DNA of 32,000 bases from Verrucomicrobiota bacterium (GCA_021294815.2 CP095464.1:720001-752000); one strand, 5' to 3'; positions 13,955-20,515 are shown, counted from the stretch's first letter. Translations and numbers: made by a program. The notes: a model not told the origin generated them from the letters alone.

Positions 13955-14767
13955 ATGGTTAAAGTGATGGGGGTGTGGTCGTGCCTGCTTTTAGGGGCTG
14001 CAGGTACGGTAGAGGGAAGTTCTGCAGATATGGTACGGATCCAGAATGCAAGGCGACAGCTACTGGTATCGGCAAAAAAAGCGAATCAACAACTTGCGCA
14101 AACGATACGGACAATCAAGACTTTGGCATCGCGGCAACCCGGTGTCGCCAAAGATTCGAAGTACGTCATTCTTCCTCAATTAGGCCAGATCGCTGCCGTT
14201 CCAAAACAAGACGCTACGGTGCTTGTCCCTCCGGGGTTTCGGCTGTACAACGTCCCAGGCGATGGACTTTGCGGGTTTTGGGCGGTGCTCGTCGTCAAAA
14301 AAATTGCCGAGCAGCACGATGCACGTGACATTTATGTCAAAAAATCGGAAATTTTGGCATTGCTAAAACGGCTCTCGGACCGCATTGCCTACATTCGTGG
14401 CAAACAAGATCGGACGCCAGAGGATACCGAAGCGTTAGAAGAAATTGCAACCTTGATCGCGAATGATACGGGGAAAAAGGAAGAGGACCTCAATAATACT
14501 GATTGGAATCAGTTTTTAACAAAGCTCGAACAAGGGCGATTGGAGCTCGATTCACCGTTAACGGTTTTTCTCGCACCGGTCATTGGTTTCGATATTCTCG
14601 TGAAAAAGGAGGAATTTCAAAAGGGATTGCGCAAAATTATCACGCACACCTATAGGGGGAATTTTCAGGCAGAAGATGATCCTGTGCAGATTTTTTACCG
14701 AGGCGATGGTCGAGGCGGACACTATCAAGCGATTGTCCCGCAAACGTGTAATATCCATATTAATTAA
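13955..14767 (+). CDS. exported OTU-like cysteine protease paralog 1 (candidate deubiquitinase-type effector)
   Basis: Signal-like N-terminus (GVWSCLLLGAAGTVEGSSA). Cys loop YNVPGDGLCGFWAVLV (Cys106). Middle motif LELDSPLTVFLAPVIGFDILV. His loop IFYRGDGRGGHYQAIVP (His256). An alternative start is the ATG at 13967. Confidence 0.7.
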   Translation: MVKVMGVWSCLLLGAAGTVEGSSADMVRIQNARRQLLVSAKKANQQLAQTIRTIKTLASRQPGVAKDSKYVILPQLGQIAAVPKQDATVLVPPGFRLYNVPGDGLCGFWAVLVVKKIAEQHDARDIYVKKSEILALLKRLSDRIAYIRGKQDRTPEDTEALEEIATLIANDTGKKEEDLNNTDWNQFLTKLEQGRLELDSPLTVFLAPVIGFDILVKKEEFQKGLRKIITHTYRGNFQAEDDPVQIFYRGDGRGGHYQAIVPQTCNIHIN

Positions 14768-14839
14768 TAGATTGGGTGAACCTAGCCACCACATTGTGCG
14801 CCGAGTAAGATCGTGGAGTTAGAAAGCGATTAACATTGC

Positions 14840-14868
14840 TTGACATCATTTTCAGGCTCGTGTATCGC
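14840..14868 (+). promoter_or_regulatory. candidate promoter of paralog 2 with leaderless geometry
   Basis: TTGACA-N17-TATCGC, then 8 nt, then the ATG at 14877. Confidence 0.5.
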
Positions 14869-14876
14869 GTAGGGGC

Positions 14877-15863
14877 ATGAACGAGAGGAAGAGGCAAATT
14901 TTCACGAATACACCGCTTGCTAAATGTTGGAGCGATTTGCTTTTGCTTGTTAAATCTTTTTTTGTGATTGGATTAGAGAGCTCCCTATTCAATGTAGCTA
15001 ACGCGGCCTTCCCCTCTTTTGATTTTGATGATGAGCGATGTGTTGATCAGCAGATCCCTTTTTGCGGTTTTGGTGAGGATTTGGAGTCCATGTTGCCGCC
15101 AGTTGACTCATTCGATTCAGCTAGCCATTGGGAACGGAACGAGGACTATAACGGTTCTGTAAAATCAAGAGATCATCGCGCTGTAGGGAAAAATTTTGGC
15201 CGTCCGCAACCTCCATCGATGCGTAAAGACACGGCTGCTCCCTTGTTGACTTCTGACCAAATTGCTGCTGTTTTACAGAAAGTAGGGTTTGCGGAAGAAA
15301 AAAGAAAGTTTCGGCTGCAAAACGTACCTGGCGATGGGTGTTGCGGCTGTTGGGCATTATTGTTGTCCGCCGCAGCTGTTGAGGATAAGCCGAACGGTCG
15401 TGTAACGAGAGCGGATATTTCTGCTTTGTTAAACTGGCTTGCTGATGATATTGCTGCATTTTTTGCTCAATCGAGCTTTACCGAAGAAGATCTTGTTATT
15501 TTTGATGAACTGACACTGTTAATCGTTCAGTACACAAATGCGGCGATCGATAATGTCACTTCCGCAGATCGAAACCGTTTTCTGTCCATGCTAAGAGAGG
15601 GGCGCGTTCAGCTAGATTCCGTGCTTATCGGACGTTTAACGAGACATTTCCGACGTACCATTATCGTCGTTTATGATGAAAATAATGCCCATGTTTACGA
15701 TTATCCCGGTGACCGAGATCCTTTGATTATCTTTTATCGGGGAGAAGGCATATTGGGGCATTATCAGTCGATTATTTTGGAGAAATATATTTTGAGGCGA
15801 GGCGATGCCTGTGACGAACAATCTTCACTAATGCTGCTAGAAAAAGCAGTGATACATTCTTGA
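14877..15863 (+). CDS. exported OTU-like cysteine protease paralog 2
   Basis: Hydrophobic N-terminal segment ending VANAA. Cys loop LQNVPGDGCCGCWALLL. Middle motif VQLDSVLIGRLTRHFRRTIIVV. His loop IIFYRGEGILGHYQSIIL. The Cys-loop DNA is recognisably similar to that of paralog 1. Confidence 0.7.
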   Translation: MNERKRQIFTNTPLAKCWSDLLLLVKSFFVIGLESSLFNVANAAFPSFDFDDERCVDQQIPFCGFGEDLESMLPPVDSFDSASHWERNEDYNGSVKSRDHRAVGKNFGRPQPPSMRKDTAAPLLTSDQIAAVLQKVGFAEEKRKFRLQNVPGDGCCGCWALLLSAAAVEDKPNGRVTRADISALLNWLADDIAAFFAQSSFTEEDLVIFDELTLLIVQYTNAAIDNVTSADRNRFLSMLREGRVQLDSVLIGRLTRHFRRTIIVVYDENNAHVYDYPGDRDPLIIFYRGEGILGHYQSIILEKYILRRGDACDEQSSLMLLEKAVIHS

Positions 15864-15888
15864 CATGACTTTAGATCCCAGGTACCAA
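15860..15888 (+). promoter_or_regulatory. candidate promoter of paralog 3 with leaderless geometry
   Basis: TTGACA-N17-TACCAA, then 8 nt, then the ATG at 15897. The TGA stop of paralog 2 (15861-15863) lies inside the TTGACA box. Confidence 0.5.
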
Positions 15889-15896
15889 GCTTATTC

Positions 15897-19168: not shown

Positions 19169-19264
19169 TTTCTTACCTCACATATTTACGCCAATAAGGT
19201 TTCCTATTCTATTTGTGGGTGGTTTGTTATTCGTCTAAGACAGAGCTACTAAAAATCCGGAGGT

Positions 19265-19290
19265 TCTTTCATTTGAAAGAGTCTTTTGTT
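19265..19290 (+). terminator. weak hairpin plus T-rich tract downstream of the 338-aa gene
   Basis: TCTTTCA-TT-TGAAAGA (19265-19280) is followed by GTCTTTTGTTATTTCTT. The stem is AT-rich and the loop is very short. Confidence 0.25.
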
Positions 19291-19331
19291 ATTTCTTACC
19301 CTCAAATTGCGCGAAATATCACGATAAATTC

Positions 19332-19360
19332 TTGACAGCATCTGAAATGCAGTGTATTCG
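19332..19360 (+). promoter_or_regulatory. candidate promoter of paralog 4 with leaderless geometry
   Basis: ATTCTTGACA-N17-TATTCG, then 6 nt, then the ATG at 19367. The GTG at 19352 used by the ORF track falls inside the spacer. Confidence 0.5.
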
Positions 19361-19366
19361 GCAGCT

Positions 19367-20515
19367 ATGAATATGAACAAGAAAAACGAATTGGCGGATG
19401 CTTTCGTTTCAATGAAGCAGAAAGTATGTTATAGCTTAGAAAAAATGTTAGCCTTGGTCGGATTGGCGAGCTTATGCTTACCTGCGTTACAGGCCTCAAT
19501 TCCAGTAGAATATGAAGCGATTTACGTCTCGAGAGATTTTAGACAACAGCCGACAGGAGAGATTTACAGTATTCAAGTCCCTGGGGTTGGAAATTGTTTC
19601 TTTTGGTCAGTTCTCACTAACGTGATGTTGCATTTGCAAGGGCGAAAGAATATTGGACCACAGCATGCGTTATATACGAGTAAAATTGGTTCGTGGAGGG
19701 TCAAATATATGCGCGACGATTTGGCGGAGACGGCTTGGGCCTGTGCGGTATGGTACGGGCTTCGTTTAGATCAAAATATCCCGCTAAGTGAAAATGAAAG
19801 CAATCGAGTGGAAGAATTAGTCGAAAGGGTGTTTTGGTCTAACGGTATGGCTAATGAAGATGATAATGCGAAGTTTGAGTATATTGGGGAACTTCTATGC
19901 AGGCTCATTGATGAAGTGCGTTATGTAAAAATGGGGCAGAATTCGGAGAAGGTTGACGAGGATTTGTATGTGCAACTGTATGGTGACGTACCTTTGGCAA
20001 CTAGAGGAGACAATTGGCAATTGTCATATGATGACGTATGTGATCTTAAATGGGATGATATCTCAAGCTTGTTCGCAATGAATGAATATTTCCCTTTAAG
20101 TATGTTACCGTTAATGGGAGGCGTTGATTGGATTTGTGAAGATGGAAATAGAAGGCCTCTTTCTGATTTGGGTGGTATTCGTGTGTTATCTCGTCGGCTT
20201 GATAAACATAATCATTTTGTCTGGGGCGTTGCGGGAAAATGGAATGTAGGGGCTAGACCAACTGTATTTGATGTCATGTTTTCAGGGAATCATATTCAGC
20301 CTCTCACAGCATGTTCCGATATCAAGACCGGGTACCAAGAGATGGGAGAGCCTCCTTTTACCGGAAGAAATCAGCTTCAGTTGGAGGCGACTCTAGAGAC
20401 TGAGTGGCAGGACGACGAAAAGGGAGAAAAATCACTAACTAGAGCGAGAATTCAAGAGTTGCTTGATCTTGATCAACGTAACAGAATCACAGGCGACCCA
20501 ATAGTTGTAAATTGA
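19367..20515 (+). CDS. exported, highly divergent OTU-like paralog 4
   Basis: Signal-like LALVGLASLCLPALQAS. Cys loop IQVPGVGNCFFWSVLTNV. A possible His loop is DKHNHFVWGVAG. The middle region is much longer than in paralogs 1-3. The ATG at 19367 is preferred as the start. Confidence 0.55.
   Translation: MNMNKKNELADAFVSMKQKVCYSLEKMLALVGLASLCLPALQASIPVEYEAIYVSRDFRQQPTGEIYSIQVPGVGNCFFWSVLTNVMLHLQGRKNIGPQHALYTSKIGSWRVKYMRDDLAETAWACAVWYGLRLDQNIPLSENESNRVEELVERVFWSNGMANEDDNAKFEYIGELLCRLIDEVRYVKMGQNSEKVDEDLYVQLYGDVPLATRGDNWQLSYDDVCDLKWDDISSLFAMNEYFPLSMLPLMGGVDWICEDGNRRPLSDLGGIRVLSRRLDKHNHFVWGVAGKWNVGARPTVFDVMFSGNHIQPLTACSDIKTGYQEMGEPPFTGRNQLQLEATLETEWQDDEKGEKSLTRARIQELLDLDQRNRITGDPIVVN

Follow-up and report, generated by a model that had tools for sequence, protein, structure and literature searches.

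A small gene island in an uncultured bacterium of the Opitutales (Verrucomicrobiota) that probably lives inside a protist, located within a genomic stretch of 32,000 nucleotides (nt) (GCA_021294815.2 CP095464.1:720001-752000; hereinafter the window, with coordinates counted from its first nucleotide), encodes three paralogous proteins, denoted P1, P2 and P3, that we accept as a predicted divergent subfamily of OTU-fold cysteine proteases because the structural model of P1 retrieves OTU deubiquitinases (DUBs) and the family profile aligns with proteins that Pfam recognizes as OTUs. A more distant protein encoded in the same island, P4, is probably an OTU as well. We consider it reasonably probable that P1-P3, and probably P4, are exported isopeptidases that act on ubiquitin or ubiquitin-like modifiers (Ubl) in a eukaryotic host. 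The four open reading frames (ORFs), reported in a preliminary description of the window as a tandem family of exported OTU-like proteases, are all present, on the plus strand:

P1, 13955-14767, plus strand: 270 amino acids (aa), predicted OTU-fold cysteine protease with Cys106, an LDS motif at aa 198 and His256.
P2, 14877-15863, plus strand: 328 aa, predicted OTU paralog with Cys156 in VPGDGCCGCWA, LDS at aa 246 and His295 in LGHYQSI.
P3, 15897-16970, plus strand: 357 aa, predicted OTU paralog with Cys74 in VPGRGRCGYWA, LDS at aa 166 and His328 in RGHYWSV.
P4, 19367-20515, plus strand: 382 aa (387 aa with the alternative start codon, GTG at 19352), divergent OTU-like protein with Cys77 in VPGVGNCFFWS and His309 in SGNHIQPL.

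The genes for P1-P3 are indeed adjacent, whereas P4 lies 2.4 kilobases (kb) downstream, with a tRNA-Gln gene, ORF X, a tRNA-Arg gene and ORF Y in between, so that only the first three genes form a tandem array. Similarly, P1-P3 are true paralogs by BLASTP, but P4 represents a separate, more distant family.

Structure and profile evidence for the OTU fold

The AlphaFold2 model of P1, built from an alignment of 14 sequences, has a predicted local distance difference test (pLDDT) score of 86-98 over aa 90-270. In this model, the OTU domain (aa ~90-270) follows a signal-like N-terminus (MVKVMGVWSCLLLGAAGTVEG) and a low-confidence helical linker. When the model was compared with the Protein Data Bank (PDB) using Foldseek, as the preliminary description had proposed, the best 50 matches were all OTU deubiquitinases (E-values from 3e-5, probability 0.90-1.00), among them DUBA (3tmp), Wolbachia wMelOTU (6w9r), OTUD3 (4bou), OTUD1, yeast Otu2, nairovirus vOTUs, Cezanne, A20 and otubains, with TM-scores on the target of 0.54-0.68 for the compact OTU domains. 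Neither NlpC/P60 nor any other envelope peptidase is present among these top 50 matches. Thus, P1 is predicted to adopt the OTU-type papain-like fold, and P2 and P3 are covered through their clear homology to P1. In secondary structure, the predicted positions of the Cys and the His are those of an OTU: Cys106 of P1 opens the helix 106-119, the Cys of the D-G-x-C-type Cys loop being at a helix N-terminus in the models of both P1 and P4; C-terminal to the Cys, a His followed by a large aromatic residue (G-H-Y in P1-P3) occupies the start of a beta-strand, with His256 of P1 being the second residue of the strand 255-262.

The connection to known OTUs at the level of sequence profiles is indirect. 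An exhaustive HMMER profile search of 1.84 billion representatives (E≤1e-3) retrieved only 75 clusters. The set of 47 proteins that were scanned against Pfam consisted of 42 distant matches from this search, P4 and four P4 relatives; eight of these match Pfam OTU (PF02338) at E≤0.01, five of the eight score above the curated threshold and three also match Otubain. The ten best distant matches of the HMMER search show no Pfam OTU match, so that the bridge comes from weaker matches only. When the family domain was aligned using hhalign with five of these eight Pfam-OTU-positive proteins, the probability was 98.5% (E 1.8e-15); the alignment spans 163 columns and superimposes both the catalytic Cys and the catalytic His. 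Thus, the OTU interpretation of the preliminary description is supported at the level of fold and family, similarity to OTUs being detected by both Foldseek and hhalign.

In Puniceicoccales metagenome-assembled genomes (MAGs), two to four OTU-like stretches can occur within one protein. The family profile matches P0036, P0042 and P0044 (806-878 aa; here and below, P with a four-digit number denotes a related protein, and L with a number, a related locus), which come from JGI metagenomes and Puniceicoccales MAGs, in three or four distinct places, so that these are multi-OTU proteins.

Predicted catalytic motifs and relationships among the paralogs

The motifs described previously are readily located. 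The Cys loop, VPG-x-G-x-C, is found in all four proteins, at aa 98-111 of P1, 148-161 of P2, 66-79 of P3 and 69-82 of P4, whereas the middle LDS motif and the GHY His loop are shared by P1-P3, at the positions given above; in P1, Cys106 is embedded in VPGDGLCGFWA and His256 in GGHYQAI. The DNA of the Cys loops of P1 and P2 can still be aligned, over 48 nt with 81% identity (14236-14283 vs 15308-15355). At the protein level, BLASTP detects the similarity between P1 and P2 with an E-value of 6e-30 (36% identity over 200 aa) and that between P1 and P3 with 3e-21, plus a separate match in the His loop, whereas P1 and P4 are connected through the Cys loop only (5e-4). Across 14 family sequences, the invariant positions are the Cys, two further Cys-loop residues (Gly and Trp) and the LDS-motif Asp, and the His-Tyr pair is conserved in at least 90%.

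P3, which is 100% identical to the protein P0025, contains a low-complexity insertion of ~125 aa, rich in Ser, Glu, Asp and Lys, that separates the LDS motif from the His loop (window 16490-16870, aa ~200-315). The P3 ortholog in L001 carries an insertion at the equivalent place, with a different sequence.

In P4, a signal-like segment (MLALVGLASLCLPALQA/S) precedes the Cys loop with Cys77, which is followed by ~230 mostly helical residues and then by His309. The His loop of this protein, left open in the preliminary description, is FSGNHIQPL. The relatives of P4 are few and conserve VPGDGNCFFWS as well as NH[YIFV]xPL near the C-terminus (e.g., NHYEPL). The link between the two families comes from hhalign, which aligns the P4 family with the P1 family at 92% probability (E 6.4e-7, 71 columns), and from the hidden Markov models of the two families, which cross-match each other's members in the local ORF set. 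In a comparison of the P4-family profile with the PDB, the best matches are the Cys loops of nairovirus vOTU and OTUD3, which are weak (E 0.019-0.3). The AlphaFold2 model of P4 is poor (pLDDT 49.6), with Cys77 at the start of the helix 76-94 and His309 at the start of the strand 309-313; the best Foldseek match of this low-confidence model is a bacterial OTU (7bu0), and it is non-significant (E 0.11). P4 is thus a probable OTU that carries a long insertion of helical structure.

Organization, conservation and selection

The gene order in the window is radical-SAM (MiaB-like), P1, P2, P3, tRNA-Gln, X, tRNA-Arg, Y, P4, glgB. Apart from the four OTU-like genes, the features of the island are:

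Promoter-like element upstream of P2, 14840-14876, plus strand: CTTGACA, 17 nt, TATCGC, 8 nt, ATG.
Promoter-like element upstream of P3, 15860-15896, plus strand: overlaps the 3' end of P2.
tRNA-Gln (CTG), 17016-17089, plus strand: identified by ARAGORN and Rfam.
ORF X, 17151-17864, plus strand: 237-aa helical protein with the C-terminus CGQGCPCLLI.
tRNA-Arg (TCT), 17921-17996, plus strand: identified by ARAGORN and Rfam.
Promoter-like element upstream of Y, 18115-18151, plus strand.
ORF Y, 18152-19168, plus strand: 338 aa, signal-like segment ending in VMQA/SAP, without a family match.
Promoter-like element upstream of P4, 19332-19366, plus strand.

The closest relatives of the island are found in the Opitutales MAG GCA_029059345.1 and in an SRA-derived bin, each with 94% identity for P1, and the more distant ones come from MAGs labeled 'Puniceicoccales bacterium' and from JGI metagenomes; the names of the isolates follow a scheme that we take to be that of termite-gut MAGs. 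No member of the family is found in cultured free-living Opitutales among the named matches, and, judging from the sequences retrieved, the family is confined to gut Opitutales and Puniceicoccales MAGs.

L001 shows the same island layout as the window, minus Y, whereas L002 and L003 lack P2, P3 and Y. In all related loci, P1 is located directly downstream of the radical-SAM gene. The tRNA-Gln is the same gene in the same position in L001, L002, L003 and L015. In the termite-type MAG loci L014, L015 and L016, the order murE, radical-SAM, OTU is kept, and L015 retains the entire frame, with a small X-like gene between tRNA-Gln and tRNA-Arg and with glgB and leuS. Tandem OTU pairs are found also in L010 and L013. 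Because synteny is kept as far as the termite-type loci, the island is old and has been inherited vertically, although its set of paralogs varies. In a rough neighbor-joining tree, P1 groups with the radical-SAM-adjacent OTUs of other MAGs, and P2 and P3 are placed on separate long branches. In L002 (10813-11059) and L003, P2 and P3 are gone from the interval between P1 and tRNA-Gln; because these closest relatives (P1 94% identical) lack both genes, while the more distant L001 has both, the pattern points to a recent deletion in the L002/L003 lineage.

The P2 and P3 orthologs in L001 are 55% and 53% identical, respectively, to their counterparts in the window, and the ratio of nonsynonymous to synonymous substitution rates (dN/dS) in this more distant comparison is ~0.2 for both, with dS saturated. 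In the comparison with the closely related L002, dN/dS is 0.07 for P1, 0.08 for X and 0.39 for P4, against 0.12-0.22 for the flanking housekeeping genes; P4 is only 70% identical in this pair, compared with at least 90% for the neighboring genes. P1-P4 are working genes that evolve under purifying selection. The possibility that they are pseudogenes is ruled out by the dN/dS values well below 1; a recent mobile element is also ruled out, given the absence of an integrase and of long repeats and the synteny conserved up to the termite-type MAGs.

The G+C content of the island is somewhat lower than that of the flanks (0.41-0.47 vs 0.47-0.49; window 14000-21000). Elsewhere in the window, a gene for a 721-aa protein without a Pfam match (8979-11144) is located between a pseudouridine synthase gene and murE. 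This protein evolves much faster than its neighbors (49% identity to L001, compared with 73-83% for MurE and the radical-SAM protein), and its position is kept in L001, L002, L015 and L016.

Signal-like N-termini and probable host association

Close to the N-terminus, the products of all six ORFs of the island, and most of the full-length relatives, have a run of 10-14 hydrophobic residues and then small residues, as judged from inspection of the sequences by eye. The small-residue stretches seen in the paralogs are VEG/SS, ANA/A, ANA/S and LQA/S; in P2, the hydrophobic segment spans aa 21-32, and the signal-peptide-like N-terminus of P3 ends in CLFSRAANA/SS. By their sequence, these N-termini look like Sec signal peptides. 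L001 retains the hydrophobic segment of P1 ahead of the start codon assigned in the public annotation, so that the public calls P0002, P0003 and P0081 are truncated at the N-terminus. In many termite-type members of the family (P0004, P0012, P0015, P0016, P0017, P0022 and P0024), the signal-like segment is immediately followed by a [VI]P[FY]WK motif and a basic stretch; this motif is absent from the window paralogs.

A type II secretion system F gene is located near the OTU gene in L016. In the window, a TolC-like outer-membrane gene adjoining an HlyD-type membrane-fusion gene (26747-29336) is the sole export-related machinery seen.

The window also encodes an anaerobic ribonucleotide reductase (NrdD), AccA, MurE, GlgB, LeuS and a DksA-like protein. 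This gene content fits an anaerobic gut bacterium, NrdD being the sign of an anaerobic lifestyle. The contig to which the window belongs measures 878,461 bp. A large clade of Opitutales from termite guts (families LL51 and UBA9783), with small genomes, consists of established or putative endosymbionts of protists and is related to the intranuclear Ca. Nucleococcus (Mies et al. 2024, PMC11257099). The same 'Nucleococcus cluster' has been described, and the genome of Ca. Nucleococcus is ~1 Mb (Williams et al. 2021, PMC8204192).

Neighboring genes and a shared promoter-like element

ORF X combines a signal-like N-terminus (MKKHLFFACLGLGTSFSFG) with a C-terminal CaaX-type prenylation box that is preceded by extra cysteines. 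Orthologs of X are present in L001 (9972-10685) and L002 (11212-11925). The identities of the orthologs to X are 90% and 79%, and their C-terminus is identical. In L015 (9800-10087), a 95-aa homolog of X with 27% identity is located between the same two tRNAs and ends in CCLLL, so that the CaaX terminus is retained, from CLLI in the window to CLLL in L015. This conservation suggests that X might be lipidated by a eukaryotic host; host prenylation of CaaX-bearing bacterial effectors is established for Legionella (PMC2916131, PMC13081727). A faint match of X to Otubain (E 0.07) in the Pfam and NCBIfam scan was judged to be due to chance.

In L014, which belongs to a related Puniceicoccales MAG, the OTU gene adjoins a gene of the USP/UCH type (9797-10642; PF00443, E 3.9e-26). 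The His box of this DUB, GHYIAY, is present, and the canonical Cys box GLANVGNTCYANS is found in frame upstream (to ~9700), where it is cut off by the public gene call. Neither the window nor six related loci contain a gene for E1, E2 or Ubl within the island or the regions flanking it.

ORF Y is missing from the syntenic loci L001, L002 and L003 and has no Pfam or NCBIfam family match; by this comparison, it is window-specific or recently gained. A 54-nt direct repeat with 70% identity (15852-15905 vs 18107-18160) links the starts of P3 and Y, where it takes in the three initial codons (Met-Asp-Lys) together with the promoter-like element, and the 5' end of Y may have been gained by duplication.

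This element, CTTGACA-N17-(G)TAYC-N~8-ATG, is shared in the alignment of the regions upstream of P2, P3, Y and P4. Exact matches to TTCTTGACA occur in the 32-kb window three times, upstream of P3, Y and P4, and the version upstream of P2 has one mismatch. The element is conserved upstream of the orthologs in L001 and L002, including that of P2 in L001 and those of P4 in both loci, despite the saturated synonymous divergence. A scan with the sigma-70 consensus found fewer promoter-like sites than in shuffled sequences and missed the shared element. The spacing between the element and the ATG implies that the predicted transcripts of P2, P3, Y and P4 would have very short leaders or none, and co-regulation of the four genes is possible. 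In the case of P4, the position of the element supports the ATG at 19367 as the start codon.

Possible functions of the island

Under the scenario that we favor, P1-P3, and probably P4, would be exported OTU-fold cysteine isopeptidases, with a papain-like active site formed, according to the models, by the Cys at the start of the helix and the His at the start of the beta-strand, in the C...H-aromatic order. The N-terminal signal-like segment would mediate crossing of the inner membrane by Sec, after which the proteins would exit the cell, possibly through type II secretion or in vesicles, to reach a eukaryotic host cell, probably a gut protist. There, they would cleave ubiquitin or a ubiquitin-like modifier off host proteins, and the removal of ubiquitin would shield the bacterium or its products from ubiquitin-dependent clearance. 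The island would also supply the CaaX-box protein, presumably lipidated by the host, and a related genome adds the USP-type DUB. The catalytic activity, the substrate, the export route and the host of P1-P4 are what we infer here; the notion that these proteins are candidate effectors, advanced in the preliminary description, is supported by the context, namely, the USP-type deubiquitinase in L014, the CaaX-box protein and the limitation of the family to gut Opitutales and Puniceicoccales MAGs.

Several observations weigh against this scenario. The comparison with PF02338 using HMMER, also proposed previously, gave no direct match for any window protein: no OTU was detected when the six proteins of the island were scanned against Pfam and NCBIfam or when 14 family members were scanned against Pfam, and the family profile matched no PDB sequence at E≤10. 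The typical OTU triad is C...H-aromatic-D/N/E (Schubert et al. 2020, PMC7396840), and in P1-P4, the canonical Asp, Asn or Glu is not found at His+2, a position occupied by Gln in three of the proteins (P1, P2 and P4), by Trp in P3 and by Lys or Arg in some relatives; Glu is present in relatives of P4 (NHYE). Furthermore, the Asp of the Cys loop (Cys-3) that is present in P1 and P2 is replaced by Arg in P3 and by Val in P4. With regard to export, outer-membrane secretion machinery was not identified in the window beyond the TolC-like/HlyD pair, and the Sec-type signal differs from the delivery of the known OTU effectors, which are predicted type III/IV substrates, and would fit a periplasmic enzyme equally well. 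Finally, the host association of the source organism is inferred by analogy, from its relatives.

It is unlikely that P1-P4 are periplasmic or surface OTU-fold peptidases with bacterial substrates and no eukaryotic target, which would hydrolyze amide bonds in the envelope or peptidoglycan, process exported proteins or act as a toxin against other bacteria, the proximity to murE being a housekeeping link. The signal-like N-termini would indeed place these proteins first in the periplasm, P1 is as constrained as the housekeeping genes, and the non-canonical His+2 residue suggests chemistry or a substrate unlike those of the classical OTUs. In each of the related loci, the P1-type gene also follows immediately on murE and the radical-SAM gene; in reduced genomes, however, conserved gene order does not necessarily imply a functional link. 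All top 50 fold matches of P1 are OTUs directed at ubiquitin or ISG15, and the USP-type DUB of L014 and the CaaX-box protein have no known use outside eukaryotic cells. The family, moreover, is very rare, as reflected in the 75 clusters, and is not seen in cultured free-living Opitutales, and the number of paralogs varies among close relatives (as in L002, which lacks P2 and P3), as is typical of accessory effectors.

A slightly less likely alternative is that some or all of the copies, P3 and P4 in particular, are catalytically weakened and function as binders of ubiquitin or Ubl or as scaffolds, or else catalyze a different papain-fold reaction, such as deamidation or transglutamination of ubiquitin, in place of isopeptide cleavage. 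The changes at His+2, the loss of the Cys-loop Asp in P3 (VPGRGRC) and P4 (VPGVGNC), where the orthologs have Cys or Asp, and the acidic insertion inside the P3 domain indicate that some copies may be weakened or specialized enzymes, and P4 is the fastest evolving of the four. Nevertheless, the catalytic Cys and His are kept in all four copies and their orthologs, and dN/dS is well below 1. As for the third triad residue, P0066, which has H-Y-Q in the His loop, scores above the curated threshold of Pfam OTU, so that Gln at His+2 occurs within the Pfam-recognized family.

Bacterial ubiquitin-like conjugation systems with dedicated proteases do exist, but a role of P1-P4 in such a conjugation or anti-phage system, acting on a prokaryotic Ubl inside the bacterium, is very improbable given the absence of E1, E2 and Ubl genes from the loci surveyed above and the N-terminal signal-like segments, which argue against a cytoplasmic role.

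Beyond the activity of the individual proteins, we tentatively raise the possibility, to which we assign somewhat less than even weight, that protist-endosymbiotic Opitutales possess an ancient toolkit for manipulation of host ubiquitin that is common to the entire order, with this island at its core. Such a toolkit would combine Sec-exported OTU and USP DUBs, having in the OTUs a Cys-His(-Gln) site that escapes recognition by Pfam, with a host-prenylated CaaX protein, would dispense with type III/IV secretion, and would have a near-leaderless promoter common to the variable genes; the symbionts concerned may include intranuclear members of the 'Nucleococcus cluster'. If this is the case, no arsenal of effectors directed at ubiquitin would have been described in Verrucomicrobiota before this one, and the island would represent independent acquisition of eukaryote-like DUBs in the Planctomycetes-Verrucomicrobia-Chlamydiae (PVC) superphylum outside Chlamydiae. 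The Sec-like signals, the non-canonical third triad residue, the multiple paralogs and the USP-type DUB and CaaX neighbors make the island a compact, testable system, from which it could be learned by what means a symbiont gains access to the ubiquitin pathways of its host when type III/IV delivery is not obvious.

Comparison with known systems

Bacterial OTU DUBs have been described in Legionella, Chlamydia, Wolbachia, Rickettsia and several other bacteria, and are markers of an intracellular or host-manipulating lifestyle. The finding described here would extend them to Verrucomicrobiota, specifically to a lineage regarded as inhabiting gut protists, possibly their nuclei. The members of the window family are annotated only as 'hypothetical protein' and are invisible to Pfam and NCBIfam, so that a profile derived from this family would improve the annotation of symbiont MAGs. 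In the literature searched, we found no report of an OTU or another DUB in Verrucomicrobiota or Nucleococcus and no description of the window family.

Among the known systems, Chlamydia ChlaDUB1 and ChlaDUB2 resemble the window family in that these are adjacent paralogous DUB genes, with N-terminal hydrophobic segments in the products, in a bacterium of the PVC superphylum that lives inside eukaryotic cells. However, they belong to the CE clan of proteases (Ulp1-like), reach the host through type III secretion and, unlike the window family, do not have the OTU fold.

The Legionella Lot OTUs (LotA, LotB/Ceg23 and LotC) contain a helical insertion, and LotA has two OTU domains. The ~230-aa, mostly helical stretch between the Cys and His loops makes P4 similar to these proteins, and its best fold matches are the Lot structures 7bu0 and 7w54, which are non-significant (E 0.11, model pLDDT 49.6); the relatives P0036, P0042 and P0044, with two to four OTU-like stretches per protein, resemble LotA in this respect. 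Unlike the Lot proteins, P4 has no Dot/Icm context and has a signal-like N-terminus.

Eukaryotic and viral OTUs, namely, OTUD5/DUBA (3tmp), OTUD3 (4bou), OTUD1 (4bop) and nairovirus vOTU (3phw), are the top structural matches of P1, and the Cys loop of the P4 family, VPGDGNCFFWS, is nearly the same as VPGDGNCFFYS of the nairovirus protein (6dx2). The differences are substantial, with the identity between P1 and these proteins at 9-18%, extra helices and a domain of 180 aa compared with ~140-165 aa. Many OTUs carry a WGG-type motif, and the window family has the LDS motif at what may be the corresponding position.

The closest analogs are the bacterial OTU effectors, which are established DUBs, including wMelOTU (6w9r), RickOTU, BurkOTU, ChlaOTU and EschOTU (Schubert et al. 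2020, PMC7396840). Similarly to these, the window family is predicted to have the OTU fold, with wMelOTU being among the best structural matches of P1 (TM-score on the target 0.64-0.65), shows the order Cys ... His-aromatic, and has very low identity to eukaryotic OTUs; furthermore, the bacteria that encode the known effectors are associated with eukaryotic cells or live within them. The window family differs from them in that it is missed by Pfam OTU and has Gln, Trp, Lys or Arg rather than Asp, Asn or Glu at His+2, in having Sec-type signal-like N-termini instead of predicted type III/IV signals, and in being represented by several paralogs in one conserved chromosomal island of Verrucomicrobiota. 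Thus, bacterial OTU effectors as such are already known, and what is new here is an OTU subfamily that is invisible to Pfam, belongs to a phylum new to these enzymes, is equipped with an unusual apparent export signal and is encoded in an informative gene neighborhood.

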